Shown here: one piece after another, positions 38,106 through 54,958 of the stretch
Numbering within the stretch: position 1 is the stretch's first letter
How the letters are laid out: each line of letters begins with the position of its first letter
From: a virus
Virus record (IMG/VR): IMGVR_UViG_3300045988_169928
Location: 45,391-109,390 of that record
Strand: one strand, 5' to 3'
DNA length: 64,000 nucleotides
Notes under the pieces: generated by a model
Seen by the model: only the letters and a program-made list of their open reading frames with translations
Database searches by the model: none
What the model was told of the DNA's origin: nothing
Translations under genes and position numbers: made by a program

Positions 38106-38117
38106 GTGGTGAAAAGA

Positions 38118-39038
38118 ATGTCTTTAAAAGATATACAAGATTATTTTACAATTGTAGATGACGCAGGTAGCTTACAGAATTATACAGGCAACCCAGATTA
38201 TGCGTTAGATGATAAATGGAAGAATATCAGCCTAGATGATTTAGGGTTAAATAAAGATATTATTCAACAGGAATTACTTGGTTTAGGGAGGGATTTAGTA
38301 GACCCAGTAACTGGTGAATCCTATTCAGATGAGTTCTATCAGAATATGTTAATTCGGGCAGTCTCACAAACAGAGAAGAAGTTTGACTTGGCAATTCTTC
38401 CTCGGTTACAAGTTGATCGGCTAGACTATCACCGGAATGATTTTAATGCGTTTGCTTATATGAATACAACTTTACGGCCAATTTTGACGGTAAAAGATTT
38501 AACATTGTACTATAACAATCAAACGATTATGCGAGTTCCTATGGAATGGGTCAAGGTTAATAATCGTTCGGGTCAGATTCAGGTTTCTCCTAGTATCTTA
38601 ATGCAAGGGTTAAATACAACCATTAACCCGACTATCTACCCAATCCTTTCTAACCCGTATGGTATGGCTCCAACACCATTCCAACAGATTGAAGTAAGTC
38701 CTCAAATGCTAGGGGTAACATCTGTTGTGGGTATGATGCCGGCTAGTGATCGAATTGGTGAGTTCCATGACTATCAGATTCAGCCAGACGTCCAATCCTA
38801 TGTGGCTAAACTAGCCGCAATTGAAATTCTAGAAAAGTGGGGTCGTAACATTATCGGGGCTGGGATTGCTTCCTATAATGTTTCGATGGACGGAATTTCA
38901 ACGGGAATGAACACCACAGCAAGTGCCGAAAATACGGCTACCACGGCTGATATTAAGTTACTACAATCAGATATGAAATCTTTAGCAGACGGTATCAAAG
39001 CATACTATGGTAACCCAGAAATTGGTTTTTACAATTAA
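38118..39038 (+). CDS. hypothetical (possibly virion-associated) protein whose C-terminal 16 aa are duplicated at the end of the next gene
   Basis: ATG at 38118 with RBS AGGTGGTGA (the track starts at GTG 38106). C-terminus ...LADGIKAYYGNPEIGFYN. Confidence 0.6.
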   Translation: MSLKDIQDYFTIVDDAGSLQNYTGNPDYALDDKWKNISLDDLGLNKDIIQQELLGLGRDLVDPVTGESYSDEFYQNMLIRAVSQTEKKFDLAILPRLQVDRLDYHRNDFNAFAYMNTTLRPILTVKDLTLYYNNQTIMRVPMEWVKVNNRSGQIQVSPSILMQGLNTTINPTIYPILSNPYGMAPTPFQQIEVSPQMLGVTSVVGMMPASDRIGEFHDYQIQPDVQSYVAKLAAIEILEKWGRNIIGAGIASYNVSMDGISTGMNTTASAENTATTADIKLLQSDMKSLADGIKAYYGNPEIGFYN

Positions 39039-39099
39039 AGCTATTGATAAATAAAACAAACTTCTGTATTATTGATGATGTAGATACGGGGGGTTTATT

Positions 39100-40038: not shown

Positions 40039-40118
40039 ACGTCTATTTAAGATAAAGTTTGCTAATATAGCTATATTGAAAGTAGTAAATTAAATCACTT
40101 AACAGAAAAGGGGATTAT

Positions 40119-41984
40119 ATGGCAACACTAACTAAATCATCTGAAACGATGAAGTTAATTTATCCTAAGGAAACTAATACACGTCCACACGTTGCAACAC
40201 AATACAATGATAACGCATTAAATAATGTTGCAGGTTCTTCGTCCAAGAATATCTTCCTATTAGGATCAGCAACAGAAGGCAACCCAGATAATATCTATGA
40301 AGTTAAATCATCTTCCCAAGCTCGGGCCATTTTTGGGTCTGGTGATCTGGTTGAAGCAATGGAATTAATCTGGAACCCAACAGGTAGCTACTACCAAAAT
40401 GGTGGGACAATCTATGCACAACGGGTTGAAAATGCAACCCAAGCTCAATTGGTCAAGGGGCCTTTAACTTTTACTTCTACTGTTTATGGGGCAAGTGCTA
40501 ATAAGGTATCTGTTTCATTTAACAAGAACCCTGTATCTGGGGCTTATGATTTCCATGTTGATTATGAACCCAAGATGTATTCCCAAACGTACATGAGTAT
40601 TGGTAATCTCTTTACGATTGGTTATGACCCGACTTCTTCCAATGTAACGGGGGCTGGGTATAAGATTACAGGTGATCTTTCTGGTGCCCAAACCTTTGAG
40701 ATTGTACTGAATACGTCTGGTGCGTCACAACCAGTCCTAACGATGGATTTAACCAGTACCGCTTACAATAACATTGGTAAGGTTATTACAGCAATTAGTG
40801 CATTACCTGGTTTTACCGTTACCACATTAAAGAGCTGTGCTAACATTGATTCAACCACTTTGGACTTGACCAGTGGTAGTGGTTATCTTACTTTGGGGAC
40901 TGGTTCCGCACCAACCACGATTACCGACTTCTATGGTGACTTACTTTACACCACTCGCTATGATGATTATGTAGGTATTAGTGTTAATCGTTTAGGGGCA
41001 CCAACAGGTGTAAGTGCCGAGGCTAGTGGTAGTGACACGGTAGTTACTGCTAATGCACAAGAGATCACTTTTGTACCATTTGACGCTACTAATCTTTCTG
41101 GCGGTAGCGATGGTAATGTACCAGTTTCATGGGCTGATAAGTTCCAGAACGTTCATGAGGTCAATGCTTACTACATTGTTCCATTGACGAGTGAAGAAAA
41201 CATTCACGCCGAACTGAAAGAGTTCTTAAATGAAGAAGAAATTCTTGGCTACAACTACTTTGGTTGGGTTGGTGGTGGATTTAATGAAAGTATGAGCGCC
41301 GCCATCAACCGGCAAACGGCTTTAAAGTCTGATCGTATTGCCTTAGTAGCTAACTCTGGGTATTACAATAGTCTCAGTGGGAAAGTCGTTCACGCACCTG
41401 CTTATCTAATGGCCGCCTATGTAGCGGGGGTTGCTAGTTCCTTGGGTGTTGGCGATTCTGTTACCCACAAATATCTGGAATTAACTAGTCTTGACCAAAA
41501 TTTCAATGGTGATGAATTGAACGCCCTTGATGATAATGGGGTTATCGCAATTGAGAAGGTAGTTAACCGCAACCAATCTGGTGGCTACCGGATTGTCGAA
41601 GATGTTACTACTTACAACTCCACGAATGAACCAGTTAAGAACCTAGTTTCACTTCGGGAAATCACCGACTACTTATTTGATGATCTTCGTATCTATCTTG
41701 AAGATACCTTTATCGGTTCCAGCGTAGTAAATACGACAGGGAGTTTAATCGCTAGTTTTATTGAAGCATTCTTGAAGCAAAAGGTTAGTGAAGGTCTGTT
41801 AGCAAGTTATGATCAGCAAAGCATTACTTGTACCATTGATGGTAATAGCGCCTACGTTGCCTTTAGTGCCGCACCTGCACGTGAAGTACGGACAATTCTC
41901 GTAAGTGGTACTTACACTAACTTCACTAGCACAACTTCTCAAGACAATTCTAATTATACTACCAATAATGGTGTAACTGGTTAA
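40119..41984 (+). CDS. tail sheath-like protein
   Basis: 621 aa. N-terminal NIFLLGSATEGNPDNIYEVKSSSQARAIFGSGDLVEAMELIW fits the sheath N-terminal pattern (VG.A..G....P..V.S...F..FG). C-terminal region conserved-looking. From memory of the P2 FI / XkdK-type sheath family. Confidence 0.55.
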   Translation: MATLTKSSETMKLIYPKETNTRPHVATQYNDNALNNVAGSSSKNIFLLGSATEGNPDNIYEVKSSSQARAIFGSGDLVEAMELIWNPTGSYYQNGGTIYAQRVENATQAQLVKGPLTFTSTVYGASANKVSVSFNKNPVSGAYDFHVDYEPKMYSQTYMSIGNLFTIGYDPTSSNVTGAGYKITGDLSGAQTFEIVLNTSGASQPVLTMDLTSTAYNNIGKVITAISALPGFTVTTLKSCANIDSTTLDLTSGSGYLTLGTGSAPTTITDFYGDLLYTTRYDDYVGISVNRLGAPTGVSAEASGSDTVVTANAQEITFVPFDATNLSGGSDGNVPVSWADKFQNVHEVNAYYIVPLTSEENIHAELKEFLNEEEILGYNYFGWVGGGFNESMSAAINRQTALKSDRIALVANSGYYNSLSGKVVHAPAYLMAAYVAGVASSLGVGDSVTHKYLELTSLDQNFNGDELNALDDNGVIAIEKVVNRNQSGGYRIVEDVTTYNSTNEPVKNLVSLREITDYLFDDLRIYLEDTFIGSSVVNTTGSLIASFIEAFLKQKVSEGLLASYDQQSITCTIDGNSAYVAFSAAPAREVRTILVSGTYTNFTSTTSQDNSNYTTNNGVTG

Positions 41985-41992
41985 TTTTAGGG

Positions 41993-42020
41993 TTGACATA
42001 TTGTAATAGTATGTTATGAT
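41993..42020 (+). promoter_or_regulatory. sigma-70-like promoter (TTGACA-N16-TATGAT)
   Basis: GGTTGACATATTGTAATAGTATGTTATGAT. Confidence 0.5.
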
Positions 42021-42078
42021 TAAGTTAATACTCCATATATAGTTTTGATGTCAGTCAAAGGACATTCCTAGTGGAAAG

Positions 42079-42117
42079 GCTGTCTTGTATTAGTTTACAA
42101 GGTGGTCTTTTTATTTT
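42079..42117 (+). terminator. rho-independent terminator (copy 1 of GGCTGTCTTGTATT...TTTTTATTTT module)
   Basis: CTTGTA-ttagtt-TACAAG hairpin then GTGGTCTTTTTATTTT. Confidence 0.45.
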
Positions 42118-42128
42118 AGAACAATCTA

Positions 42129-42157
42129 TTGACATTACCATATCAAAATGATACTAT
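42129..42157 (+). promoter_or_regulatory. sigma-70-like promoter (TTGACA-N17-TACTAT)
   Basis: TTGACATTACCATATCAAAATGATACTAT. Confidence 0.5.
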
Positions 42158-42274
42158 ATAGTTACATTAATTTAGTCGTTAAGTTAATGTTGGTTAAGTT
42201 TACTAACCCCTTGGTAGCAAAGTATTGTGACGAGACTTGTGCGGTAGGTAGCTTGACATTATTCAGTGCAAAGG

Positions 42275-42310
42275 CTGTCTTGTATTGGTTTACAGGACAG
42301 TTTTTATTTT
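42275..42310 (+). terminator. rho-independent terminator (copy 2, 10-bp stem)
   Basis: CTGTCTTGTA-ttggtt-TACAGGACAG plus TTTTTATTTT. Confidence 0.65.
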
Positions 42311-42330
42311 AGATTTTTTAACAAAAAGTA

Positions 42331-42360
42331 TTGACACTATCTCTACTTGTGGTATTATAT
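42331..42360 (+). promoter_or_regulatory. early promoter, family A copy 1 (TTGACA-N16-TATTATAT) with conserved leader GTTGTCGAAAGGATAAG
   Basis: About 90% identical to copies at 61136 and 61496. The ORF-track ORF 42331.. begins inside this promoter (TTG of TTGACA) and is spurious at its 5' end. Confidence 0.6.
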
Positions 42361-42405
42361 AGTTGTCGAAAGGATAAGGACAAAAAGAAAAGGAGAATCA
42401 TAATT

Positions 42406-42561
42406 ATGGATAAGAAGTACGAAGATTACAGTTTTGAAAACGACTTAGGTTATGACGAATACCTTTGGTATCGTGATCACCCAGAAGAAGCTAAGAAGGA
42501 AAAGGGATACGAGTTTGACCAATGGCAAAAGCAAGCCATCATGGACGACAAGGCAGAGTAG
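42406..42561 (+). CDS. small acidic early protein (51 aa)
   Basis: ATG at 42406 with RBS AAAAGGAGA. MDKKYEDYSFENDLGYDEY... Confidence 0.5.
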   Translation: MDKKYEDYSFENDLGYDEYLWYRDHPEEAKKEKGYEFDQWQKQAIMDDKAE

Positions 42562-42573
42562 GAGGTTTACCCA

Positions 42574-42798
42574 ATGGCAAAAGGATCAAGACGGTATTGG
42601 CATAAGTACATCGTTATGAGAGAGATGGCTCATAAAAATTTGTATCGAGGCATTGACACAGATTTGTCACTTCATGTCAACTTCGTTCGCGAGTTGAATC
42701 ACCTACCCAAGTATCACGGTACCAAGTACCGCGGACTAAAAAGGTGGTTGGCAAAAGAAAATTCAACAGCAAAATTAACTAAGGAGGACAAAAGATGA
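42574..42798 (+). CDS. small basic protein, paralogue of 43220..43441
   Basis: RRYWHKYIVMREMAHKN...LPKYHGTKYRGLKRWLAK versus RRSWHKYIVMNEKANKS...LPKYQGTKYRGQRRWLAK. Confidence 0.55.
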   Translation: MAKGSRRYWHKYIVMREMAHKNLYRGIDTDLSLHVNFVRELNHLPKYHGTKYRGLKRWLAKENSTAKLTKEDKR

Positions 42799-42992
42799 AA
42801 ATTTATGAGGTGTTCACAGAAGTTTTACAAGGGCCAAGCCATGTAGTAGTCGCTAACAATAAAAGCGAAGCTATTGAGATGACGATTAATTATCTCAACC
42901 AATCCCCAACACACCATGTATATAAGCCTTCTGATTTCTATGCTGGTGTTATTAATGTTGACAAGTTGTCAGAGCCAACAATTATTTGTTAG
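42795..42992 (+). CDS. hypothetical small protein
   Basis: 65 aa. Start overlaps the previous stop. Confidence 0.45.
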   Translation: MKIYEVFTEVLQGPSHVVVANNKSEAIEMTINYLNQSPTHHVYKPSDFYAGVINVDKLSEPTIIC

Positions 42993-43004
42993 GAGTGATG
43001 ATAG

Positions 43005-43223
43005 ATGGAGATAGATAAGCATTTCATAGAACAAGAGAAATTAGATGAAGAAACAATTAACCAAGTTATTAAAGGATTTCAAAATGCAGGGGAACAATAT
43101 AATGGCCTTCAATGTGCAATTGCAATGGAAATCCTATTAAGAACTCTATGCCCAGAAGAAGAACAAAGAACCTTGGTTAAGGAACTTGTAGATAACTTCT
43201 ATAATGTTGAGGTGGATAAATGA
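43005..43223 (+). CDS. hypothetical small protein
   Basis: 72 aa. No motif. Confidence 0.45.
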   Translation: MEIDKHFIEQEKLDEETINQVIKGFQNAGEQYNGLQCAIAMEILLRTLCPEEEQRTLVKELVDNFYNVEVDK

Positions 43224-43441
43224 CAAAAATAAATCCTAGATCTAGACGTTCTTGGCACAAATACATTGTCATGAACGAGAAGGCTAACAAAAGCGTAGAT
43301 CGATGTGTTGACACGGATTGGCCAATGTTTATCAATTGGCAAGCGAAGCATATGCACCTACCAAAGTACCAAGGCACCAAGTACCGTGGACAAAGAAGAT
43401 GGTTGGCAAAAGGAAAGGTAACTAAAGGAGATAAAAAATGA
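43220..43441 (+). CDS. small basic protein, paralogue of 42574..42798
   Basis: See the paralogue at 42574..42798. Start overlaps the previous stop. Confidence 0.55.
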   Translation: MTKINPRSRRSWHKYIVMNEKANKSVDRCVDTDWPMFINWQAKHMHLPKYQGTKYRGQRRWLAKGKVTKGDKK

Positions 43442-43845
43442 CTGGTCAAAGGTTTATTAGTTTTGCAAAGTATAAAGTTCTACAATGGCTATGGCACAAT
43501 GTTGAAGATATGGACGGTATCAGTTACAATGACATTTTCGTTGTTTGGTACTCTAAGACCTTACAGAACCGTAAGGTACTCCTAGGAACTTGCTTTACCA
43601 ATCATTATTTTGAATGCACGTTCAATGGAGATAAGGGTGAAATGTATGTTGACGTATACGACAAGGTTCAAAATGAATGTTTCAAGGTTACACAATTAAA
43701 TAATGCAGAGACGTCTAACGGTAATAAAGAAGAAATGGACGTGTACAAGAAAGTACAAAACGTATGCGTTAAGGTTGGCAAAAAGAAATTTAGTATCAGA
43801 GATTTAATCTCAAAGTTAACTAAAGGTGGTAAAAATGGGAAATAA
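43438..43845 (+). CDS. hypothetical protein with internal duplication
   Basis: GDKGEMYVDVYDKVQNECFKVT / GNKEEMDVYKKVQNVCVKVG internal repeat. Confidence 0.5.
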   Translation: MTGQRFISFAKYKVLQWLWHNVEDMDGISYNDIFVVWYSKTLQNRKVLLGTCFTNHYFECTFNGDKGEMYVDVYDKVQNECFKVTQLNNAETSNGNKEEMDVYKKVQNVCVKVGKKKFSIRDLISKLTKGGKNGK

Positions 43846-44134
43846 TAAAACCTGTCCGTACTGTCACGAACAAAAGGACATAATTAACACACTGGATCAT
43901 AGTCGGATTTATGTTGCCGGTATGGAACAACCCGGTCAAGTTGTTCATATCTATGATAATCGACTGATCTGTGAGGAGCAGACAATCGAATCACGAAAAA
44001 TTAATTTTTGTCCAATGTGTGGACGAAAACTTGACAATGGTAAAGAGAAACATAAAACAAAACCTAAGGCCGATAGTAAGAAACCAAAAACAAATTATAT
44101 TGATGAAGTATTAACGCAGTTTGAAAGAAAATAA
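43826..44134 (+). CDS. zinc-ribbon protein (CPYC...CPMC)
   Basis: CPYCHEQ ... CPMCGRKL four-Cys ribbon. Lys-rich tail. Confidence 0.5.
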   Translation: MVKMGNNKTCPYCHEQKDIINTLDHSRIYVAGMEQPGQVVHIYDNRLICEEQTIESRKINFCPMCGRKLDNGKEKHKTKPKADSKKPKTNYIDEVLTQFERK

Positions 44135-44546
44135 ATCTAGGAGTGAAAGACTAATGACAATGGATAATCAAGCAGAATTAGTAAACAAGTTGAGTGACCA
44201 AGTTCCCCAGATGTTAGAGGATATTAATAAGCTAACTAAGAAGTTAGATGATTTAGAACGAAAGGCTAAGGAAACTCAAGCGTTGTGCAATGAGTTGAAG
44301 CAAGGTCAACCTAAGCGACAAAAGGGTGGAGTTAAGATTAGTTTTGCCCCGCTAGATTCCGGTCTTAAATTCCAAGAATTGGTCTTTAGCAATGTTAGTG
44401 AAGCTGAATCAGCCTTGGGTTCTTCTCGTGGTTCCATTGGTAAGCGGTTGGCAGGTAAGATTAAGTCACTTTCTTTCAATGCGACTTATAAGGGTAAGGA
44501 AGGAATTGCAGTTGTTAAGGTAACACCACACATTGAATTACCATAG
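44121..44546 (+). CDS. hypothetical protein
   Basis: 141 aa. N-terminal coiled coil. Confidence 0.45.
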   Translation: MKENKSRSERLMTMDNQAELVNKLSDQVPQMLEDINKLTKKLDDLERKAKETQALCNELKQGQPKRQKGGVKISFAPLDSGLKFQELVFSNVSEAESALGSSRGSIGKRLAGKIKSLSFNATYKGKEGIAVVKVTPHIELP

Positions 44547-44548
44547 TT

Positions 44549-45676
44549 TTGGAGGCGAAACCAATGAAGTTACTGGTTGCTAGTGATATTCACTTAACTA
44601 ATTACAACGCTTTTAACGAAGAAATTTCAGGCCAACCCCAAACTGGTTCCCGGCTTAACTATCTGTTAAGTGCTTTATCTTATTTTTTCTGTTATGGTCG
44701 AGATCGTGGTATTATGCACTATGTAATTAATGGTGACTTATTTGATAAGCGCCAACGGGATAACCCAGCTACCCTAGCTTATATCCGGGCTTGGCTTGCT
44801 GGCTGTGCGATTAATTTACCTAAGGAAGCGAAGGTATATTTTAATGTTGGTAATCATGACGAGTTAGGACGTGACGTATACCCAAATTCGTTAGTTGATT
44901 TTCCTTACTTAGATAGCCGATTTGTTGTTGTTAATAAAGTTCAGTTGTTTAGTCTGAATGATGATTCTAAATTATTCTTTGTTCCCTACACCGAGAATGT
45001 AGAGCAGAGTAAGAAGGATATTAAAGAATCAATTAAGTACATGAAAGGGCCAACTACTGTCTTTGCACACACTGGTGTTGAAGGCGGTGTCCAAGGACGT
45101 TGGCAACATAGACTAGAGGGTGCTTATAGTTTATCTGATCTAGGATATGACCAACCTAATGTTAAAGCCGTTATCTTGGGACATTATCACAACCGTTACT
45201 TTATTAAGAAACAACCCAAGCCAGCTTGGTATGTTGGAGATTTACTGGGTTTATCTTTTAATGATTTAAATAAAGATGGTAGTGGGGCTGACCGGGGCTT
45301 TGATGAGATTGATACATTAACTGGTAAGCATACCTTTGTTAATCTGTCTAAGCTATACCCTACCTTTAATCAATTTGATTATGATGAAAGCAAGGTATCA
45401 GCATATCAGGAATTAGCTAAGGATAATTACCTCAAGTTAGTGTTTAGTGACAATAATACCCTGTCAGAGTTCATGAGTGGCCCATACAAGGACTTTAACC
45501 AAGCTCATGTACAATTATCTATTAGCCCTGCTAAAACGTCTGAAAAAGCCTTAGACGAGGAATTAGAACACAATGCAAGTGACTATGAATTAGTTAAGTC
45601 CTATTGTGAGGATAAATATCCCGAGGTTACAAAGTCCGCACTCAACTACCTAATGAAAGCAAGGGAAAGTGATTGA
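44549..45676 (+). CDS. SbcD/Mre11-like metallophosphoesterase nuclease
   Basis: LVASDIHL, INGDLFD, NVGNHD, GHYH: calcineurin-like phosphoesterase motifs I-V in order. Confidence 0.75.
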   Translation: MEAKPMKLLVASDIHLTNYNAFNEEISGQPQTGSRLNYLLSALSYFFCYGRDRGIMHYVINGDLFDKRQRDNPATLAYIRAWLAGCAINLPKEAKVYFNVGNHDELGRDVYPNSLVDFPYLDSRFVVVNKVQLFSLNDDSKLFFVPYTENVEQSKKDIKESIKYMKGPTTVFAHTGVEGGVQGRWQHRLEGAYSLSDLGYDQPNVKAVILGHYHNRYFIKKQPKPAWYVGDLLGLSFNDLNKDGSGADRGFDEIDTLTGKHTFVNLSKLYPTFNQFDYDESKVSAYQELAKDNYLKLVFSDNNTLSEFMSGPYKDFNQAHVQLSISPAKTSEKALDEELEHNASDYELVKSYCEDKYPEVTKSALNYLMKARESD

Positions 45677-47502
45677 TTAAGTTATTAATTGGCAACATTA
45701 ACATTAAATTAGTGTTTGAAGATCTACCTGATAAAGAGGTTAAGTGGGTTAAGAAACAAATTCATAATACTTTAGACCCGCTTGACCCACAGCGGTACCA
45801 TAAGAAAGCCTACAACCAACGAGATAAGTTCGGGAGTCGTTTCTGGGACGGCCGCATAAAGGTCTGTGACTTAGATAATAATTTAGTTCCCACTGGTTTA
45901 TATGATGAGTTAATTAAACTATTGGACACTGCCATTGTTCCCCAAGGCTTTCAGTATTCCTATGAAGATCAACGTAAGCCCCAACTATTAGTTAAAGTTC
46001 CTGATCAAATTGATTTAAAGGACTTAATGGGTGATGGCAAGGATATAACCTTGCGTGACTACCAATATTCGTCTGTAAGAAGTGCTTTTGATAATCAAGT
46101 AGGGATTGTCTTGTTAGCCACTAACGCAGGTAAGACGAGTGTAGCTGTTAGTATATTCAAGTTTTTATTAGAGCAACGCCTCAAGGATAACGAAAAGCTG
46201 TTGTTCATTGCACCTAACACCAGTGTAATGAACCAGCTTTTTCATGATTATCAACGATATATTGGTGCAGATAAGGTTGGTATTTGGGGTGATAGTAAGA
46301 AGGATTTAACTAAGCCAATTATTGTTGCTACTTACCAAACCCTTAACTCAACCCTCAAAAAACCAGAGGTTAAGTTAACCAAGAAGAAAGATAAGCATTT
46401 AGAGCGGTTTGCAGTTACTTATCACAATATGATTTTCGATCATGGAGATCCTTATACCAACTTGAAATTGTTAGCACTAAACTTGAAGCCCAAGTACAAG
46501 TATCAAGCTGACGATCCCCAAGATCTAAAAGACATTTATTCAGTAGTTTCTAATTCAAAACAAACCAAAGAATACTTTGATGGTTTATATAAAAAGTATA
46601 AAAAGTTAGTATATAAGAACCATAAAGATGAGTTTGAACGATATGACGAGTGTAGGGACTTATTAAATAGTGTGGTTGCTACAATTGTTGATGAGTGTCA
46701 AGGGGCTGGGGCACCATCATATTGGAACATTTTCCAAGAACTGAATAATTCCCGTATGCGGATTGGTTTAACTGGTACCATGCCTAAACAGGATAAGTTA
46801 AAGATGGTTCGTATTAAAGCCTTGCTAGGGATGCCCATTGCTAATATTTCTAATGACGAGATGATTAAACGGGGTTTCTCGGCTAAGCCTCATATTAAGA
46901 TGGTTAAAGTTGATCAGCCGGTTGACCTTGAGCAAAGAGTAGGGGCGGAACTACAACGCCGGGCTAATCGAGGAATGATTACTGGTGACCTAGTTAATTA
47001 CCAACTAGCCTATCGTTTAGGGGTTATTGATAATGAATACTACAATCAAGTAGTTTCTAACATTGCTTTTAAGGCCAGTGAACGGGTTAAGAAGCATGGT
47101 AAAGCAGTTATGGTGATGGTTAATTCTCTGGAACACGGGGAGAACATTGCCAAGAAACTGGATAAACTCGGTGCTAAGTATGACTATGTAAAAGGTGAAG
47201 ATGATACCGAAACTAGAGAGAAAGTCTTAGATCGGGTACGGAGTGGTGAATTACCAATTGTAATTGCCACTAAGATTTTTGAAGTAGGTATTAACTGTCC
47301 TAACATTCAGGTATTTGTTCAATGTAGTGGTGGTAAGTCTTATGTATCATTAATGCAACGGATTGGTCGGATTCTTCGTATTCAAGAAGATAAACATGAC
47401 GTTTATGTATTTGATCTAGTTAATACCAATTCCGATATATTGTACCGTCAGGCTCAAGAACGGTATCGTCAGTACCAACAGGAAGGATTTGACATTTCAT
47501 GA
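45673..47502 (+). CDS. SF2 DNA helicase (DEAD/DEAH-like)
   Basis: TTG start overlapping the previous stop (TTGA). Motif I ATNAGKTSVA, motif II VDECQ, motif III TGTMP, motif VI QRIGRILR. Confidence 0.75.
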   Translation: MIKLLIGNINIKLVFEDLPDKEVKWVKKQIHNTLDPLDPQRYHKKAYNQRDKFGSRFWDGRIKVCDLDNNLVPTGLYDELIKLLDTAIVPQGFQYSYEDQRKPQLLVKVPDQIDLKDLMGDGKDITLRDYQYSSVRSAFDNQVGIVLLATNAGKTSVAVSIFKFLLEQRLKDNEKLLFIAPNTSVMNQLFHDYQRYIGADKVGIWGDSKKDLTKPIIVATYQTLNSTLKKPEVKLTKKKDKHLERFAVTYHNMIFDHGDPYTNLKLLALNLKPKYKYQADDPQDLKDIYSVVSNSKQTKEYFDGLYKKYKKLVYKNHKDEFERYDECRDLLNSVVATIVDECQGAGAPSYWNIFQELNNSRMRIGLTGTMPKQDKLKMVRIKALLGMPIANISNDEMIKRGFSAKPHIKMVKVDQPVDLEQRVGAELQRRANRGMITGDLVNYQLAYRLGVIDNEYYNQVVSNIAFKASERVKKHGKAVMVMVNSLEHGENIAKKLDKLGAKYDYVKGEDDTETREKVLDRVRSGELPIVIATKIFEVGINCPNIQVFVQCSGGKSYVSLMQRIGRILRIQEDKHDVYVFDLVNTNSDILYRQAQERYRQYQQEGFDIS

Positions 47503-47747
47503 AAAAGAGAGCTACTATTTTATATAATATTCATACCAACAAGGGGTATCGATACGGTTCCCGTGCGGACGCCGCTATTGCGTGTAATGTAACTGGGGCC
47601 AAAGTGGGTAACGTATGTAATTTAAAGGACAAGCATTTACTCGTTGACGATACCTACACTGCCTTTTATGCCGATGATTATACAGTTGATAATGTTCAAG
47701 AACGCATGGCCAAGATCAAAGAATCATACCCCGACTTGCTAGATTAA
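47499..47747 (+). CDS. hypothetical protein
   Basis: 82 aa. Overlaps the helicase stop. Confidence 0.45.
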   Translation: MKKRATILYNIHTNKGYRYGSRADAAIACNVTGAKVGNVCNLKDKHLLVDDTYTAFYADDYTVDNVQERMAKIKESYPDLLD

Positions 47748-47766
47748 GTAAGAAGGTGGTGATTAA

Positions 47767-48768
47767 ATGGCTGATAGTAATAAGAGCAGTTCTAACTCAA
47801 ATAATAGTAGTAATGCTCAAGCAGAATCAAGTAAGTTAATGCTTGTACCGGAGGAGATTACCCCGGTTGCACACGCAACAGACAAAGAAACTTTAAGGTA
47901 TGCTCACAGTGTATCTTATGTGCCATCAGTAGTTATCTCGACCATTGAAGGGACATATCCTTTGGTTCCACGCAACTACTCACATTACTTGCCTAATGGC
48001 GCCAGAGAAGATTTTATCGATGACATTATCAGTCTACAAACACAGAACTTGATGAGTAATGATATTCCAACTTGTACTATCACTCTTGGAGATCAATACG
48101 ATTGGAGTTCTGTTTTGTCAGTTAATGATTTAATTCGTATCGATTTAGTTTTACCGGTTGGTAGTAGTGGTAATAATGATTCTCTTAAACCAAATGTTTC
48201 CCTTGCTAACAAGCGGTGGCAGTTAAAGACTAGCGGTAGTGGAGATAATACTACTTATTCGACTGAATTTGAAGATACAATTTCTTACTTTCAAGGGGAC
48301 GCTAATACCCAAGTTGACGCCATTAAGTACAACATTTACTATGGTCTGGTTTCGTCTTTGTCTAGAAACACTTCTTATAGTTCTAGCCAAACCACCTACA
48401 CCATTGTTGGTCAAGGTATGGCAAAGATTCTTTCTAGTATTCAGTTAGCAAGTTTTAGTGAATTATCAGCTAACCTAAGTGGTTATCAAATGTTACCCGA
48501 TGATGAAAAGACCGGGATTGCTTTTGGTAATCATACCAGTGCCAATATCATAAAACAGATTATCAATCGGTTTATTCTTCAAAACCAAAGTGGAAGTAAC
48601 ACTTATGATTTTGAAAGTGTTAATGATAATTCATATGGGATTGGTATTACAACTCGTTCTACCGCAGTTCAGGTTGATTGGTGGGGCGATCTAATGGGAA
48701 ATGCGATTAGCGAGGACACCTATTCAGCATATATGGATAGCATTGCCAATAATGGTGGCAATAGTTAG
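47767..48768 (+). CDS. hypothetical (possibly virion) protein with S/N-rich N-terminus
   Basis: MADSNKSSSNSNNSSNAQ, a leader similar to that of the next gene. Confidence 0.5.
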   Translation: MADSNKSSSNSNNSSNAQAESSKLMLVPEEITPVAHATDKETLRYAHSVSYVPSVVISTIEGTYPLVPRNYSHYLPNGAREDFIDDIISLQTQNLMSNDIPTCTITLGDQYDWSSVLSVNDLIRIDLVLPVGSSGNNDSLKPNVSLANKRWQLKTSGSGDNTTYSTEFEDTISYFQGDANTQVDAIKYNIYYGLVSSLSRNTSYSSSQTTYTIVGQGMAKILSSIQLASFSELSANLSGYQMLPDDEKTGIAFGNHTSANIIKQIINRFILQNQSGSNTYDFESVNDNSYGIGITTRSTAVQVDWWGDLMGNAISEDTYSAYMDSIANNGGNS

Positions 48769-48779
48769 GGGGTATAGTT

Positions 48780-50813
48780 ATGGCAGATAAAGATAAAGAT
48801 AGTAAATCAAGTTCTAGTTCTAATAACGCTAGTCTTTACGCTAACATGATGAATATCCCACTTGCGGTTGCCGATGGTGATGATATTCCAATGCAAAATC
48901 TGGTTGAGTTTGATATATGGGAAAACTTAGATGAAAGTTACCCTCCTGATACTGGGACTTCTAATCCATATACAAACTACAATGGTTCCATCTTACAAAT
49001 GATTAAAGATGTATCATCGCAACCATTTAACGAAATGTTCTGGACAAATGTACGTGGGATTCCAACTTTTGTATATCGACCAACCCCTTTTGACCCCGAG
49101 AATTGGAAGGGTCTAACTACTAACACCATTCCAACTGAATTAATTACAGATATTAGCATTGAAAATAGTGATAGTGAGCAATCAGCAGTCTTTAAGATTA
49201 CCCCTACCCAAAACCTTGGGGACACCACTTATTCAGGAGGAATCAATGCTAATCTTTATCCTTTGACTAACTTAGATCTAGTTCGCCGTTATGGCTATAA
49301 GCTCATGGAAGCTAATACAGATTATTTTAATGGTCAAACACTAGAATTAGATAGTCAGTCACATACGCCCGGAACCACCTATGCAGATAGTGAAGCGATG
49401 AAGGGTTACACGGATAAGACGGCTCAACTACACTATCCCCCATATACTAGCATTGTGGACGCTTTCTATCTTACTAGTGGGCGTAAAGGTTCTAATGCTA
49501 ACTTGTCAATTCCAAAAGAGTATGGTGGTAGTACCGCTTATAATGCGGTAATGAATGCGTTAAAGGCAACCAATTCTAATGTGGCGTTCTTTAATTCAAT
49601 TAGTAGTTATGGTATTACTAAGGAGCAGGCTAATTCATTGTGGCTAAGTAAAAACTCAATGAGTACCACTAAGTATCTTAGTATCATTGCCCCGAATTAT
49701 GTACCAACGACTACTAATTTAGCTAAAGACACTACTTACTTGAAGTCATATAAAGCCATGAAACAAAACCCTAAAAAGGCGGCCAGTGAATTAATTGGCT
49801 TATTGGGGTATTCGATTGGTAGTAAACAGGCTTATGAAATGGTTGAGTATGCAATTAATAATGGGGGAACCATTTCAGAAAGTGCCTACAACCAGATTAG
49901 AAGCCAATATAAGATCACTGATACCGAAGATGGGGTTAGTGGATCTCCAATGAATGGTAATGATTCCGTTAATTTCTTCTTTGCTAGGTATAGTGAGAAG
50001 CTGTTTAATTGGTATGCGGATAACGCTAAGTTTTATTCAGGAACCATAACCTTTGCTGGGCTTGAAAGTGAGCAAACCACTTTTAAAGAGAATAACTTTA
50101 TTGGTACTCGGATCTACTTTTATGATCGAGCAAATGGAACTTACTGGGAATTTTATTGTGAGGGTGAACAGTACAGCTTTGACTTTTCTAATGGTTTAAT
50201 GGTTACTCTTACCATTACTCGAGGGGTTCCTTTAGGTGATGATATTACCAATACTAATAAGCGTTTCTCGAATGAATGGTCTTTTTGGGGCACCTTTACC
50301 AACTTTGTTGGTGGGTACTTTGGGGAGCAGACCTTAGCGGCGGCGATTGAGAATGCCACACCAGATTCAGGTAGTTCTAGTTCATCTTCTGGTAGTGATG
50401 GTGATATTGTTTCCTTTGCTAAGAAGGTGGAGGGTAAGAATTGGTCTTACTCCCAAGCTAATCGAACTAATTTTGGGGATATTGGTAAACCAAAGGATAG
50501 TGGGTCAGCAGACTGTTCAAGTTTTGTATGGTATGTTTTAAAATCGTGTGGTTATCAAACAAGTGATAGTCCGTGGACAACTTTTTCAATGGAACCATAT
50601 CTCGACCAAATTAATAATGACAATTCTAAAGCTGGTGATGTGGTCATCAATAATGCTAATCCACACACTGGGATTCTTTTAGAAAAATGGAAAGGGCCTG
50701 ATACCAAAGTAATTAATTGTATCGATAGACACCCATCTGTGTGCGAGGGCGGATACCAAAGTATGTTTGGCAATAGCTCCCCATCAACAGGAATCTTCCG
50801 TGCTAAGAAGTAA
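48780..50813 (+). CDS. large protein with C-terminal NlpC/P60-type cysteine peptidase domain (candidate virion-associated peptidoglycan hydrolase)
   Basis: MADKDKDSKSSSSSNNAS leader. C-terminal GSADCSSFVWYVLKSCGY (NlpC/P60 catalytic Cys context) and later H (PHTGIL). Confidence 0.6.
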   Translation: MADKDKDSKSSSSSNNASLYANMMNIPLAVADGDDIPMQNLVEFDIWENLDESYPPDTGTSNPYTNYNGSILQMIKDVSSQPFNEMFWTNVRGIPTFVYRPTPFDPENWKGLTTNTIPTELITDISIENSDSEQSAVFKITPTQNLGDTTYSGGINANLYPLTNLDLVRRYGYKLMEANTDYFNGQTLELDSQSHTPGTTYADSEAMKGYTDKTAQLHYPPYTSIVDAFYLTSGRKGSNANLSIPKEYGGSTAYNAVMNALKATNSNVAFFNSISSYGITKEQANSLWLSKNSMSTTKYLSIIAPNYVPTTTNLAKDTTYLKSYKAMKQNPKKAASELIGLLGYSIGSKQAYEMVEYAINNGGTISESAYNQIRSQYKITDTEDGVSGSPMNGNDSVNFFFARYSEKLFNWYADNAKFYSGTITFAGLESEQTTFKENNFIGTRIYFYDRANGTYWEFYCEGEQYSFDFSNGLMVTLTITRGVPLGDDITNTNKRFSNEWSFWGTFTNFVGGYFGEQTLAAAIENATPDSGSSSSSSGSDGDIVSFAKKVEGKNWSYSQANRTNFGDIGKPKDSGSADCSSFVWYVLKSCGYQTSDSPWTTFSMEPYLDQINNDNSKAGDVVINNANPHTGILLEKWKGPDTKVINCIDRHPSVCEGGYQSMFGNSSPSTGIFRAKK

Positions 50814-50815
50814 TT

Positions 50816-50848
50816 AAAAAAGACTGGTATTAACCAGTCTTTTTTGTT
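50816..50848 (+). terminator. terminator, family C copy 1 (GACTGGT-ATTA-ACCAGTC + T-run)
   Basis: AAAAAGACTGGTATTAACCAGTCTTTTTTGTT. Followed by promoter TTGGAT-N16-TATAAT at 50857-50884. Confidence 0.6.
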
Positions 50849-50870
50849 ATATGGTATTGGATTTTAGACT

Positions 50871-51107
50871 ATGTATGATATAATTAAACCATCAATTAGG
50901 AAAGTTAGAGGTGAAATCATAATGGATTCTAAAGACAAAATCATAATGAACTCTAAAGGAGAAATTATAATGGATTCTAAATGGAGTGCCTTAGGAAAAG
51001 GCTTAGCGATCTGTGGGATTTGTGGTCTTATTGTAGCAGAACTATATTTTAAGGCTCCGGGCTGGGTATTTGGTTGGTCACTCTTTGCACTAATTATTTC
51101 GTTATAA
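50871..51107 (+). CDS. small membrane protein preceded by triplicated RBS-ATG repeat
   Basis: 24-nt unit GAAATCATAATGGATTCTAAAGAC x3 (50913-50984). The hydrophobic C-terminal 45 aa (MDSKWSALGKGLAICGICGLIVAELYF...) is the likely product. Confidence 0.45.
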   Translation: MYDIIKPSIRKVRGEIIMDSKDKIIMNSKGEIIMDSKWSALGKGLAICGICGLIVAELYFKAPGWVFGWSLFALIISL

Positions 51108-51165
51108 TAAAAGAAGTAATTAAAAAGGACTGGTTAATACCAGCCCTTTTATCTTATAAAAGCTA

Positions 51166-51193
51166 TTGACTTTTAGGTTATGTATGCTATACT
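51166..51193 (+). promoter_or_regulatory. promoter, family C copy 2 (TTGACT-TTTAGGTTATGTATGC-TATACT), after terminator 51122-51155
   Basis: Conserved with copy 3 at 52239-52267. The ORF-track ORF starting at 51166 begins in this promoter. Confidence 0.55.
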
Positions 51194-51225
51194 TGAACCA
51201 TCAATTATGGAAAGAGGTAGCTAAT

Positions 51226-51555
51226 ATGAAATACATTAATCAATTAACTGATGATGAATTGAAAAAGATTTTTGTATGTTTAGTCAAAGACTTTTACAAG
51301 GTGGATAAAATTGATGATGATTGCCAAATTATCCGAGATCAACCTTTGATTACCATTAGGGGGAACTTTGATAGGGGTATTATCAAAGATGTAGAATGTC
51401 CTGCTCCCCTTACTCTGGAACTTGATGATTTTAATGTATATTCTGATTATAACCCAAATTGGGTGATGGCACAGCATTATCGTAGTCACATGGTTTGGAA
51501 GTTTGGGAAACAATATGCTATCGATTGTTTTTGGGACGGTTTAGGGGGTTATTAA
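51226..51555 (+). CDS. hypothetical protein, paralogue of 51558..51893
   Basis: ATG 51226 with RBS AAAGAGG. MKYINQLTDDELKKIF... ends ...DCFWDGLGGY versus paralogue MKLKYVNQLNSYELGELY... ends ...DCFWNDCRG. Confidence 0.55.
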   Translation: MKYINQLTDDELKKIFVCLVKDFYKVDKIDDDCQIIRDQPLITIRGNFDRGIIKDVECPAPLTLELDDFNVYSDYNPNWVMAQHYRSHMVWKFGKQYAIDCFWDGLGGY

Positions 51556-51557
51556 AT

Positions 51558-51893
51558 ATGAAACTTAAATATGTTAATCAGTTAAATAGTTATGAGTTGG
51601 GTGAGTTATATTCAGTGTTCATTGCACAGTATTGTGGCTTTAAAGTTGAACATCTTGATGTTATTAAGAGTATATATACAATCACTTTCAAGGGTAGCTA
51701 CTACGCTTTAGACGATGATGATAATGAAATACGACTTGAGGATAGCTTTGAAGTTAACGACTATGGTGTGCTTAGCAATGCTGTTGGGTTTGGTTACGTT
51801 TTTGACTTAACTAAGTTTATGCGTAAGTTTATGTTCAACAAGTTTGGCAAACCCTATATGGAAGATTGTTTTTGGAATGATTGTAGGGGGTAA
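51558..51893 (+). CDS. hypothetical protein, paralogue of 51226..51555
   Basis: ATG 51558 with RBS GGGGG. Confidence 0.55.
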   Translation: MKLKYVNQLNSYELGELYSVFIAQYCGFKVEHLDVIKSIYTITFKGSYYALDDDDNEIRLEDSFEVNDYGVLSNAVGFGYVFDLTKFMRKFMFNKFGKPYMEDCFWNDCRG

Positions 51894-51898
51894 AGATA

Positions 51899-52183
51899 AT
51901 GACTAAGACAGATGAATTTATTAAAAAAGTAGAACAGCTTAACCCACACCTAACCGTAGACAAGTATCATAACTTGTATGGTCGTGACCATAGCAAAGTA
52001 GATATGATTATTTGGTATCGAAAAGACATTAACACCGTAATGTCTTTTGCCTCCATCACTTATCTTCATGGTACGCCCGTAGTTGAGACAAGTCACAACT
52101 CTTTAGATAAAGATTATTTAGCTTTGTATAGTGATGTTATTAATCTATGTGTAGAATACTTTCCCTACTTTTTTAGGGAATAA
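51899..52183 (+). CDS. hypothetical protein
   Basis: 94 aa. Followed by terminator 52191-52220 (family C copy 3) and tandem promoters TTGACA 52225 and TTGACT-N17-TATGAT 52239-52267. Confidence 0.45.
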   Translation: MTKTDEFIKKVEQLNPHLTVDKYHNLYGRDHSKVDMIIWYRKDINTVMSFASITYLHGTPVVETSHNSLDKDYLALYSDVINLCVEYFPYFFRE

Positions 52184-52300
52184 GTATAAGAGGCTGGTTA
52201 ACACCAGTCTTTTTTGTTTAGGCTTTGACATAAATATATTGACTTTTAGGGTTTGATATGCTATGATTGGGCTATCAAGTAAAGAAAGAGGCAATCAATT

Positions 52301-53065
52301 ATGAAGTTTGAACTTAAAGGATATGTTTTTGAATTTAAGCCCGTTAAACGTAGTGAGATTATTGATTTAATGATTAATTACCATTATCTACACCGGAAGG
52401 TTGCTACTAAGTATGCTTATGGTTTGTTTGCAGATAATGAGTTAAAGGGAATGATTACCTACACAGCTCCACGATTAAGTCTTGCTCGTTCTATTAGTGA
52501 AGAGGCAAATCAAGATAACACCTTAGAACTTTCCCGATTGTATATCAAGGACGAGATTTCTCAAAATGTTCCTAACATTACTTCCCGCTTTGTGTCTTGG
52601 ACTTTACGTGAACTCAAGAAGCAAGGTAATTGGTTTATTATTTCGTTTGCTGATTCTAGTATGGGCCATGTTGGGAGTATCTACCAAGCAACCAACTTTC
52701 TTTATTGTGGGACTACTAAAAGTGGTATGTTATGCTATAATGGGCCTTTCAAACAAGGTGGCACATGGGTTAAGGGGGTTCATTATCGGTTTTTACTTAT
52801 TCGGAGTATCAAGCATAGGTATATCAAATTTGTTGGTGATCGTCGCTTTCAAAAGGGGGCTAAAAAAGACCTCAAGCTGGATATTGTCCCTCACCCTCAT
52901 GGACTTGGCGCCCATTATGAAGTTGGAGATGTTGAAACTCGCTTCATTAAGGATCGAAAAACAGGCCGTATCTATACCGAAGCACAGTTACTTAGATCTT
53001 TCCCGGATTACGACTGGGATAATCAAGACTGGGGAATAGAGGATATTAATACACCTAATAAGTAG
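52301..53065 (+). CDS. hypothetical protein (weak GNAT/Mom-like resemblance, speculative)
   Basis: 254 aa. ...FADSSMGHVGSIYQATNFLYCG is faintly reminiscent of acyl-CoA-binding motif A of GNAT-fold proteins. Confidence 0.5.
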   Translation: MKFELKGYVFEFKPVKRSEIIDLMINYHYLHRKVATKYAYGLFADNELKGMITYTAPRLSLARSISEEANQDNTLELSRLYIKDEISQNVPNITSRFVSWTLRELKKQGNWFIISFADSSMGHVGSIYQATNFLYCGTTKSGMLCYNGPFKQGGTWVKGVHYRFLLIRSIKHRYIKFVGDRRFQKGAKKDLKLDIVPHPHGLGAHYEVGDVETRFIKDRKTGRIYTEAQLLRSFPDYDWDNQDWGIEDINTPNK

Positions 53066-53076
53066 GGGGTGATATA

Positions 53077-54363
53077 ATGACAAAACGTAAAACAGATGAG
53101 GAGTTCCAGCAAGAAATTTACAGTCTAGTAGGCGATGAATACACATTTCTAGATAAATATGTTAATGCAAGGACAAAACTAAGGGTAAAACATAACGAGT
53201 GTAATTTTGTATATTCCGTTTCTCCCCACAACTTTTTAACAGGCAAACGTTGTCCCAATTGTTTTAAGACACCCAAGAAAAGTGATATTCAGTTTCAGCA
53301 TGAAGTTCATACTTTAGTGGGTGATGAATACACATTTTTAGATCCTTATGTTAACAATAAAACAAAGCTAAGGGTAAAGCATAATGTATGTGGAAATGTC
53401 TATAAAGTTAGGGCTTCATCTTTTTTAGATGGTAGTCGTTGTCCATATTGCGCAGGACTGGTTAAGAAAACAGATAAACAGTTCAAACAAGAAATTTACA
53501 ATTTAGTAAATGATGAGTACACATTCCTAGATTCTTATGTTAATACTAATACCAAGTTAAGGGTTAAACACAATAAATGTGGGAATGCCTATGAGGTTAC
53601 ACCCTCTAAGTTTTTATCTGGTGAGCGCTGTCCTTACTGTGCAGGACTTGTTAAGAAAACAGATACCCAGTTCAAACATGAAGTTAACATTTTGGTGGGC
53701 GATGAGTACACATTCCTAGATAGATATGTTAATGCTTATACAAAAATTAGGGTTAAACACAACAAATGTAATTTTATATATTCTGTTGCTCCTACTAATT
53801 TCCTTAGGGGTAGTCGCTGTCCTCATTGCTATCTAGTTAATAAATCAAAGTCGGATAATCTCTTTAAACAGGAGGTTTCTAGCCTTGTTGGCGATGAATA
53901 CACAATATTAGATACTTATACTAATGCGGAATCCAAGATTAGGTTAAGACATAATAAATGTGGAAATGTTTATAAAACTCGACCTCGTACTTTTCTTGAA
54001 GGGTATCGTTGCCCATATTGTAATAGTCCTAAGGGGGAAACTGTTATTACTAAGCTGTTAGATACTTTTAGTATTGATTATGAGTATCAAAAAACCTTTG
54101 AGGATCTAAAAGATAAGTCATATTTGTCTTATGATTTCTATATTCCAGACCAGAACATCTTAATTGAATATCAAGGGATTCAACATTATCAACCTGTAGA
54201 CCTTTTTGGTGGAGATGATAGATTTATTAATCAACAAAAGCATGACCAGATGAAGTTAGACTATGCTAAAGATCATGGTTATAATTTAATTGCTGTTCCC
54301 TACACAGAAGATACTTTCTCTAAGATTAAAAAGTATCTGACTAAGCATGGACTAAAGAAGTAG
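53077..54363 (+). CDS. freestanding endonuclease paralogue: 5 zinc-ribbon repeats + Vsr/DUF559-like nuclease domain
   Basis: Five repeats of K.D.QF..E...LVGDEYTFLD.YVN..TK.RVKHN.C...Y.V....FL.G.RCP.C. C-terminal YDFYIPDQNILIEYQGIQHYQP. Confidence 0.65.
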   Translation: MTKRKTDEEFQQEIYSLVGDEYTFLDKYVNARTKLRVKHNECNFVYSVSPHNFLTGKRCPNCFKTPKKSDIQFQHEVHTLVGDEYTFLDPYVNNKTKLRVKHNVCGNVYKVRASSFLDGSRCPYCAGLVKKTDKQFKQEIYNLVNDEYTFLDSYVNTNTKLRVKHNKCGNAYEVTPSKFLSGERCPYCAGLVKKTDTQFKHEVNILVGDEYTFLDRYVNAYTKIRVKHNKCNFIYSVAPTNFLRGSRCPHCYLVNKSKSDNLFKQEVSSLVGDEYTILDTYTNAESKIRLRHNKCGNVYKTRPRTFLEGYRCPYCNSPKGETVITKLLDTFSIDYEYQKTFEDLKDKSYLSYDFYIPDQNILIEYQGIQHYQPVDLFGGDDRFINQQKHDQMKLDYAKDHGYNLIAVPYTEDTFSKIKKYLTKHGLKK

Positions 54364-54430
54364 CTTATCAACCTCCTATATTAAGTCTAGAAAAACATAG
54401 TTTATCTAAACTTTATAGGGGGTTTTAATA

Positions 54431-54868
54431 TTGGCGACAGTAAGCAATCAATCTGTGAACAGTGCAAACAGAATTTACATTATGGCACAGAACCATCTTG
54501 TGGCAAGGGCACAATCATTAAGTGCACAACGTTCTTTTGGTACAGAGGGTGTGTATGAAATCGGTTCCATCATGCCACAAGAACACGTTTATCTCAAGTA
54601 CACGGGTAGTGTTACGCTTGAACGGTTCCGCATGGTTTCAAGTAACTTGGCAAGTGCCCAAATGGGGGCGATCGCCGCATTAGGTGAAGATATTTTAAAC
54701 AAGGATATTATCACCATTAACGTTATGGATAGTGTAACTAAGAACCTAGTTGAGAGCTTCTATGGTTGTTCGGCTTCCAGTTACTCCACTGCGTACCGTA
54801 GCAATCAAATCGTGACTGAATCAATAGAATTTTTGTACCTTAGCTCCGGGACAACTGCTGTAAGCTAG
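54431..54868 (+). CDS. tail tube-like (major tail) protein
   Basis: 145 aa. The pattern ...SLSAQRSFGTEGVYEIGS...YLKYTGSVTLERFRMVSS resembles XkdM-type tube proteins (from memory). Followed by terminator AGAGATAGTGTAATAGCTATCTCTTTTTTT. Confidence 0.4.
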   Translation: MATVSNQSVNSANRIYIMAQNHLVARAQSLSAQRSFGTEGVYEIGSIMPQEHVYLKYTGSVTLERFRMVSSNLASAQMGAIAALGEDILNKDIITINVMDSVTKNLVESFYGCSASSYSTAYRSNQIVTESIEFLYLSSGTTAVS

Positions 54869-54958
54869 GTTAACAGTTACTTTATATAAAGAGATAGTGT
54901 AATAGCTATCTCTTTTTTTGTTATACAAAAAGGCCACCCGGTTTAGGGGTGGTCATTT

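Follow-up and report, generated by a model that had tools for sequence, protein, structure and literature searches.

Dispersed tail genes in an LfeInf-like Hopescreekvirus: sheath and tube homologues 12.4 kb apart among replication genes

A tube gene placed right after the sheath gene is typical of contractile tail systems, although it is not defining for the tube protein itself. Here we describe a stretch of viral DNA in which this arrangement is broken. The window, i.e. the whole stretch of 64,000 nucleotides that was analysed (IMG/VR virus record IMGVR_UViG_3300045988_169928, positions 45,391 to 109,390; all coordinates below are those of the window unless another genome is named), carries a tail sheath gene and a tail tube gene separated by 12.4 kb from sheath stop to tube start, the tube not being immediately downstream of the sheath. 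We consider it very probable that both belong to one ordinary contractile tail of the phi812/K type, the genes of which have been dispersed by rearrangements specific to this lineage. The proteins and the genus are already known and the tail biology is not new; unusual are the uncoupling of sheath and tube, the distribution of the tail genes across both strands in six or more units interspersed with replication genes, and the duplication of the tape measure protein (TMP).

Both genes had been proposed in a first-pass annotation made from the sequence, as a sheath-like open reading frame (ORF) of 621 aa and a tube-like ORF of 145 aa, and both proposals are supported by profile and structure-database matches:

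40119-41984, plus strand: tail sheath, 621 aa (PHROG 279, PDB 5li2)
54431-54868, plus strand: tail tube, 145 aa, TTG start (PHROG 985, PDB 8q01_A)

By homology, the first encodes a full-length Herelleviridae tail sheath and the second a tail tube of the phi812 type. The sheath ORF matches PHROG 279 'tail sheath' (E 3.9e-105) and, over its full length, the phi812 sheath of solved structure 5li2_A (E 9.8e-109; query residues 15-601 on residues 6-582 of the 587 in the chain), and Pfam Phage_sheath_1 scores 29.3 bits (E 9.3e-7), just below its cut-off of 31.4. The tube ORF matches PHROG 985 (E 2.8e-59) and, again over its full length, the solved 8q01_A 'Tail tube protein' (E 1.2e-42; residues 1-141 on 1-138 of 142). 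A precomputed Pfam match to PF26461 Phi812_tail_tube is on record for the tube protein; in the Pfam scan of this analysis no family, PF26461 included, scored on the ORF. The outcome named beforehand as speaking against the proposal, that neither ORF has a sheath or tube fold, is the opposite of what the profile and PDB sequence matches gave. These two ORFs and a third one named in the same annotation (48780-50813, 677 aa) are all present as described on the plus strand.

Nucleotide comparison places the window in Hopescreekvirus, as an LfeInf-like virulent Herelleviridae myophage of Limosilactobacillus fermentum. LfeInf (vB_LfeM_EcoInf; NC_029058 / KP054477; 106,071 bp; genus Hopescreekvirus) was isolated on L. 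fermentum (Liu et al. 2015, PMC4558781), and transmission electron microscopy of its virions, from a phage 95% identical to the window, revealed contractile tails of 202 x 20 nm (PMC4558781). The 64-kb window is 94-95% identical to LfeInf; long aligned segments of the two are 91-97% identical and form a single collinear chain with few indels. The window runs opposite to LfeInf, and its span there reaches from ~61.7 kb to the left terminal repeat. Both properties on which we judged genus membership, close nucleotide identity to LfeInf and a collinear arrangement, are present, and the window phage is a new relative, at strain or species level, of this published and annotated genome.

The scattered order is not an assembly artefact, because it is the same in the isolate LfeInf and in independent metagenome contigs. 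Misassembly would be conceivable at the repeated promoter/terminator cassettes and at the three paralogous HNH genes, but an identical tube protein is found in 16 independently assembled metagenome contigs from several studies (one of 109 kb), the six tube places shown among those contigs have the same neighbouring genes (two of the six span helicase, TAME, tube and the tape-measure paralogue TMP2), and the junction sequences are unique and kept between the window and LfeInf. An assembly error in the window or in the LfeInf record is therefore extremely improbable.

One tail gene set in at least six units

For the tail genes, the first-pass annotation had suggested three or more transcription units lying on both strands. 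This proves to be an understatement, as the window holds at least six tail-related units:

0.5-9.9 kb, minus strand: chaperones, TMP1 and ORF65-like baseplate gene
10485-13011, plus strand: stopper, p1127 and terminator
38106-41984, plus strand: adaptor, HNH gene and sheath
47767-50813, plus strand: split TAME
54431-54868, plus strand: tube
58474-54959, minus strand: TMP2

The genes of these units, other than sheath, tube and HNH, and one small neighbour are:

525-5006, minus strand: ORF65-like (DUF4815) baseplate protein, 1493 aa (PDB 9euf_0, E 1.2e-145; PHROG 877)
5408-8662, minus strand: tape-measure-like protein TMP1, likely start ATG 8644 (PHROG 1047, E 3.5e-159; PHROG 167)
8701-9889, minus strand: tail assembly chaperone pair, two overlapping ORFs (PHROG 15939/1038/4988)
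10485-11459, plus strand: neck/stopper-like protein (PDB 8q01_S, E 1.1e-22)
11462-12175, plus strand: p1127 (PHROG match)
12175-13011, plus strand: tail terminator (PDB 8q01_M, E 5.7e-9)
13015-13221, plus strand: small ORF
38106-39038, plus strand: head-to-tail (neck) adaptor, likely start ATG 38118 (8q01_b, PHROG 772)
47767-48768 and 48780-50813, plus strand: TAME/hub (phi812 ORF56 homologue), split, both halves PHROG 1015
54959-58687, minus strand: TMP2, tape-measure-like paralogue (PHROG 1047, E 3.6e-185; Pfam Glucosaminidase)

The PHROG scan agrees with the earlier description of a minus-strand chaperone/TMP operon at 0.5-9.9 kb without an adjoining tube gene, except that its supposed fibre gene (525-5006) is a homologue of the phi812 ORF65/DUF4815 baseplate protein. 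The LfeInf counterpart of the chaperone pair is annotated as a joined frameshift product (gp093/gp094 joined coding sequence), and TMP1 has a C-terminal lytic transglycosylase-like region and a terminator hairpin upstream. For TMP2 the true start is probably ATG 58474, giving 1171 aa, the length also called in metagenome contigs. The adaptor matches PDB 8q01_b 'Adaptor protein' with E 4.7e-47, and for p1127 the PDB sequence search gave no relative. The two TAME halves lie in different frames, with a ribosome-binding site (RBS) ahead of the second; the gene is also split in LfeInf (gp019/gp018), and unsplit, at 1026-1038 aa, in the Elpedvirus phage LpeD and in a sister clade known from metagenomic contigs, both described below. 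In the head region of the window (14274-16723, minus strand) the order is portal, major capsid protein (MCP), protease; in LpeD and in locus L015 it is portal, protease, MCP.

As its other possibility, the first-pass annotation had proposed that parts of two distinct tail systems are brought together in the window. This could mean a chimera, or a second, myovirus module acquired horizontally beside a siphovirus-like chaperone/TMP/fibre operon. Such a reading could draw on tail genes that are far apart and on both strands, and on two tape-measure-like genes that are just 27% identical over 777 aa. Both TMPs, however, belong to the Herelleviridae family PHROG 1047, and they lie in tandem in the sister clade, which argues for an old duplication within the lineage and not for a foreign module. 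Apart from the TMP paralogue all parts are single-copy (the sheath has a single place in LfeInf, too) with best relatives in one Lactobacillus Herelleviridae lineage, and the adaptor, stopper-like, terminator, sheath, tube, TAME and ORF65-like proteins each match the corresponding solved phi812 virion protein. Compared with the sister clade, most parts are 42-79% identical and the TMP paralogues 32-38%, as expected for one lineage, and among the window ORFs covered by the PHROG and Pfam scans there was no siphovirus-type major tail protein, second sheath or second tube. A second tail system is thus effectively refuted, and we give it next to no credence. Among 33 isolate records with a TMP2 relative, LfeInf alone has two TMP copies, and the best match of the single LpeD TMP is TMP2.

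The genes beside and between sheath and tube are as follows:

39100-40038, plus strand: HNH/CapR-type free-standing homing endonuclease between adaptor and sheath (PHROG 559, E 4.6e-95)
41993-44546, plus strand: small ORFs and strong sigma-70-type promoters (41993, 42129, 42331, 42958)
44549-45676, plus strand: SbcD/Mre11-like nuclease (Metallophos, PHROG 100)
45673-47502, plus strand: superfamily-2 DNA helicase, 609 aa (ResIII and Helicase_C)
52301-53065, plus strand: Mom-like DNA modification gene (Pfam Mom, E 3.8e-31), not in LfeInf at this position
53077-54363, plus strand: second HNH homing endonuclease, not in LfeInf at this position

The cluster at 41993-44546, which begins 9 nt past the sheath stop codon and contains a DUF6275 protein gene (43438-43845), is probably an early gene cluster. 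Replication and repair genes (SbcD-like, helicase) and a candidate hydrolase at 48780-50813 had been placed between sheath and tube before, correctly so; for the hydrolase itself the NlpC/P60 match is weak (E 1.6e-4, under the cut-off), and the ORF is in addition the second half of the homologue of phi812 ORF56/TAME (PDB 9euf_E, E 2e-29). TAME follows the helicase with only one small ORF between, and 3.6 kb separate TAME from the tube. A Mom homologue is also present in the sister clade, with an HNH gene and adjoining the major capsid gene; being present in the window, absent from LfeInf and placed elsewhere in the sister clade, the Mom-like gene behaves like a mobile cassette.

Derivation from a canonical gene order

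Synteny with Lactobacillus relatives, the comparison recommended by the first-pass annotation, yields the same scattered order in LfeInf and a canonical one in LpeD. On a single strand, LpeD has TerS, TerL, portal, protease, MCP, adaptor, stopper, p1127, terminator, a small ORF and sheath, followed by tube, chaperones, TMP, TAME and baseplate genes and then by a replication module of helicase, SbcD, SbcC-like exonuclease, anti-sigma factor, primase, DNA polymerase and recombinase, in which the SbcD orthologue lies beside the SbcC-like exonuclease and primase genes. A map of reciprocal best hits between LpeD and LfeInf consists of a collinear backbone and individually relocated genes. Relative to LpeD, the adaptor, sheath, tube, TMP2, TAME, SbcD, DNA polymerase and DUF6275 genes have moved to the LfeInf left arm, the stopper/p1127/terminator block has kept its place in inverted orientation, MCP and protease have exchanged positions, and ORF65 lies ahead of the baseplate genes; in the window, this block (10485-13221) is likewise inverted relative to the head and tail genes when orientations are compared with LpeD. 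The window helicase (45673-47502) is beside SbcD, and its counterpart in a canonical genome was not located.

Separation of sheath and tube is rare. Among 80 tube-relative loci from IMG/VR, 76 have the sheath at most 331 nt upstream, one has an HNH gene between and one is without upstream sequence, so that the sheath is directly upstream of the tube in 76 of the 79 informative loci; a sheath is lacking within 10 kb only in LfeInf and in a single sister-clade contig. The closest outgroup is this sister clade, represented in IMG/VR by UViG 3300043812_000021 and other contigs (30-152 kb), and of it we examined 40 kb of one contig. On one strand it has adaptor, stopper, p1127, terminator, small ORF, sheath, chaperones, TMP1, TMP2 and unsplit TAME, and its tube is found 8.3 kb past TAME, behind 14 ORFs without LfeInf homologues, and is followed by an HNH gene. 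The duplication of TMP1 and TMP2 and the location of the tube downstream of TAME, away from the sheath, are common to the sister clade and the window. Judged from this order, the sister clade appears to represent an intermediate, with the tube alone relocated, and since the tube is beyond TAME there and a close neighbour of TAME in the window, we infer a two-step history. Its starting point would have been the canonical single-strand order of adaptor, stopper, terminator, sheath, tube, chaperones, TMP, TAME and baseplate. In a first step, in the common ancestor with the sister clade, the tube would have moved and the TMP been duplicated; in a second, the Hopescreekvirus lineage would have been scrambled further, with its genome reduced to 106 kb. 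In the course of these events the leftward-transcribed arm would have received the adaptor and sheath unit, the genes for DNA polymerase and SbcD, and the neighbourhood from TAME to tube with its duplicated TMP, and the stopper/terminator block would have been inverted in place.

The sister-clade tube gene (L014 9714-10001, IMGVR_UViG_3300043812_000021) is seemingly interrupted, with an exon MATVAGQTV preceded by an RBS ~290 nt upstream of the main ORF. It may contain a group I intron: the gap gives an Rfam hit below threshold (25.3 bits, gathering score 50; E 2.5e-4), no group I intron is found in this gene by Rfam at the gathering threshold, and the putative intron fold has no added stability over shuffled sequence (z = -0.21).

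Late-promoter-like motif, mobile elements and possible co-expression of the dispersed units

Nearly all dispersed units have the motif TATATTA 27-90 nt upstream of their starts:

5042-5048: ORF65-like gene (42 nt upstream of the start)
8666-8672: TMP1
10456-10462: stopper
38089-38095: adaptor
54377-54383: tube (conserved in LfeInf)
58510-58516: TMP2
15166: protease
16813: MCP
22745, 25777 and 28208: ORFs in and around the lysis region
486: gene leaving the window

Of the 20 copies of the motif in the window, 11 precede a correctly oriented gene start by 15-110 nt, whereas the rate for the 34 other 7-mers of equal composition is 11% (Fisher p = 4e-6). Enrichment is likewise seen in the sister clade (p = 0.009) and in LpeD (p = 8e-6); in LpeD, sheath and tube are inside the adaptor operon and have no motif of their own. 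The late promoter of Kayvirus, as defined by RNA-seq, lacks a -35 element and consists of a long -10 box, TGTTATATTA; it was ascribed to a sigma factor of the phage (PMC7698491). TATATTA is the core of this box, and genes for a sigma and an anti-sigma factor are annotated in LfeInf, outside the region covered by the window. Several units are also bounded by terminators or by promoters of another type, the sigma-70-type promoters from 9 nt past the sheath stop marking a unit boundary there:

38050-38084, plus strand: intrinsic terminator with a 16-bp stem, which ends the ROOL RNA gene and is directly followed by the TATATTA at 38089-38095
50816-50845: bidirectional terminator after TAME
54888-54954: a pair of terminator hairpins where tube and TMP2 converge, the second predicted on both strands

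Taken together, motif position and the analogy with Kayvirus, on which the late-promoter assignment is based, suggest that autonomous TATATTA late promoters keep the scattered genes co-expressed. A phage sigma factor could switch on all units together late in infection through their own copies of the -35-less motif, and with a late promoter for each unit and a common sigma factor, adjacency of the genes would not be needed.

Several points weigh against parts of this reading. TATATTA is short and lies in AT-rich DNA, and with the upstream TGT of the extended Kayvirus 10-mer the window sites have 1-3 mismatches. For the sheath, the only motif is the variant TATATTG (40072-40078, 47 nt upstream of the start), and TAME, without a motif of its own, may be co-transcribed by read-through from the helicase. 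The order of events is deduced from 40 kb of one sister clade known from metagenomic contigs, and the tube may have relocated independently in the Hopescreekvirus and sister-clade lineages. Finally, either TMP paralogue may be the one that measures the tail.

Two other explanations were weighed. One is that breaks made by homing endonucleases next to sheath or tube were repaired ectopically and so caused the relocations, which we regard as unlikely. HNH genes of one family, PHROG 559, do adjoin sheath or tube: in the window (39100, 53077), in the sheath-tube gap of locus L015, after the sheath of locus L008 and after the tube of the sister clade. The gene at 39100-40038, not in LfeInf at this site, even bears a typical homing signature: the insertion (39040-39971) duplicates ~70 nt of the 3' end of the adaptor gene, the adaptor ORF is made complete by a recoded duplicate, and the HNH ORF ends in a fusion to the original copy. 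The link is nonetheless a correlation. LfeInf has the same scattered order without the two HNH genes at these sites, so that the present copies arrived after the rearrangement and were rejected as its cause, and L015 and L008 retain the canonical gene order despite an HNH gene beside sheath or tube.

The other, which we consider rather improbable though less so than breakage by homing endonucleases, is that dispersal rewires timing or dosage, with tail genes embedded among replication genes being expressed earlier or at other levels and the two TMPs giving alternative tails. TAME, behind the helicase and lacking its own TATATTA, would fit, as would the strong sigma-70-type promoters flanking sheath and ROOL RNA, the transglycosylase-like region of TMP1 as opposed to the glucosaminidase domain of TMP2, and the divergence of TMP2 between window and LfeInf (88.7% protein identity), which exceeds the genome average. 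Against it, late-type motifs and terminators insulate the adaptor and the tube, the sheath again having only its TATATTG variant. Moreover, some Kayvirus units are driven by both early and late promoters (PMC7698491), so that mixed control would not be special to this phage. An ordinary tail with dispersed genes, probably under joint late control, remains our preferred explanation.

The region upstream of the adaptor has further features. A full-length ROOL RNA (Rfam RF03087; 37503-38048, plus strand; 124.6 bits against a gathering score of 99.1) occupies the 615-nt gap there, preceded by a TG-extended sigma-70-type promoter (37480-37508); LfeInf (L001) has a ROOL RNA at 24752-25297 on the minus strand (129.4 bits), where no feature is annotated. 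The best inverted repeat of the window (8647-8684 / 38077-38114; 38 nt, 92% complementary) spans the terminator tail, TATATTA and RBS upstream of TMP1 and of the adaptor. As the scar of a single inversion it was rejected: inverting the 29-kb segment puts the chaperones before the adaptor and does not restore the canonical order. The repeat is more likely a shared promoter/RBS cassette, with a role as recombination substrate possible.

Elsewhere in the window, three paralogous HNH/CapR-type genes with internal 189-nt repeats are present on the plus strand (39100-40038, 53077-54363 and 59637-60809). Two ORFs of 174 and 332 aa (61560-63095, plus strand; PHROG 5070/7964) are built of an 18-nt (6-aa) periodic repeat and have paralogous copies at LfeInf 89.7-94.4 kb, and tRNA-Thr(TGT) and tRNA-Ser(GCT) are encoded at 31790-32016 (plus strand), as in LfeInf.

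Significance and comparison with known systems

The rules that the tube follows the sheath and that the tape measure follows the chaperones are widely relied on for annotating tails and for detecting contractile injection systems. A lineage that breaks them with an ordinary tail calls for caution in synteny-based annotation, and public annotation can be corrected: in LfeInf records the tube is labelled 'virion structural protein' or hypothetical, and the RefSeq record names the neck adaptor 'tail fiber protein', the sheath already being annotated as such. LpeD, the sister clade and Hopescreekvirus form a graded series and thereby a small natural experiment on the break-up of a morphogenetic operon whose pieces each keep a putative late promoter. 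There is also a small chance that the Hopescreekvirus lineage and its sister clade represent a rare natural uncoupling of a near-invariant sheath-tube pair combined with a TMP duplicated into diverged paralogues that differ in their cell-wall hydrolase domains. Use of both TMPs could then give either two tail types or one tail core equipped with two lysins, and the one-element late promoter TATATTA would suffice to hold a fully scattered morphogenetic regulon together. Scattered clusters of tail genes are familiar from T4-like phages. The searchable literature on LfeInf, Hopescreekvirus and EcoInf, consisting of the 2015 isolation paper only, was not found to discuss the scattered order, and that paper mentions no sheath, tail tube, synteny or rearrangement (PMC4558781).

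LfeInf resembles the window most closely, with adaptor, sheath, TAME, tube, TMP2, DNA polymerase and SbcD at matching scattered positions and a ROOL RNA at the equivalent site. The window differs from it by the gain of the HNH genes at 39100 and 53077 and of the Mom-like gene at 52301, by the absence of a 1.8-kb LfeInf segment bearing a Mg2+ transporter gene, and by another gene (Ant-like) at 35916. At a greater distance, LpeD and the plantarum-group Herelleviridae share the same core gene set (identities to the window: sheath 49%, tube 57%, MCP 56%), and the sister clade is closer in all three proteins (59%, 79% and 63%). The Kayvirus phi812/K (PDB 5li2, 8q01, 9euf) has homologues of the sheath, tube, adaptor, terminator, ORF56/TAME and ORF65, with sheath and tube homologous over their full length. 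The ORF numbering used by the depositors (ORF49 for the sheath, ORF50 for the tube) indicates that the two genes are neighbours in Kayvirus. All Kayvirus tail genes are generally described as forming one rightward module with a single TMP. Unlike phi812/K, the window has sheath and tube 12.4 kb apart, tail genes on both strands, two TMP paralogues and a split TAME.

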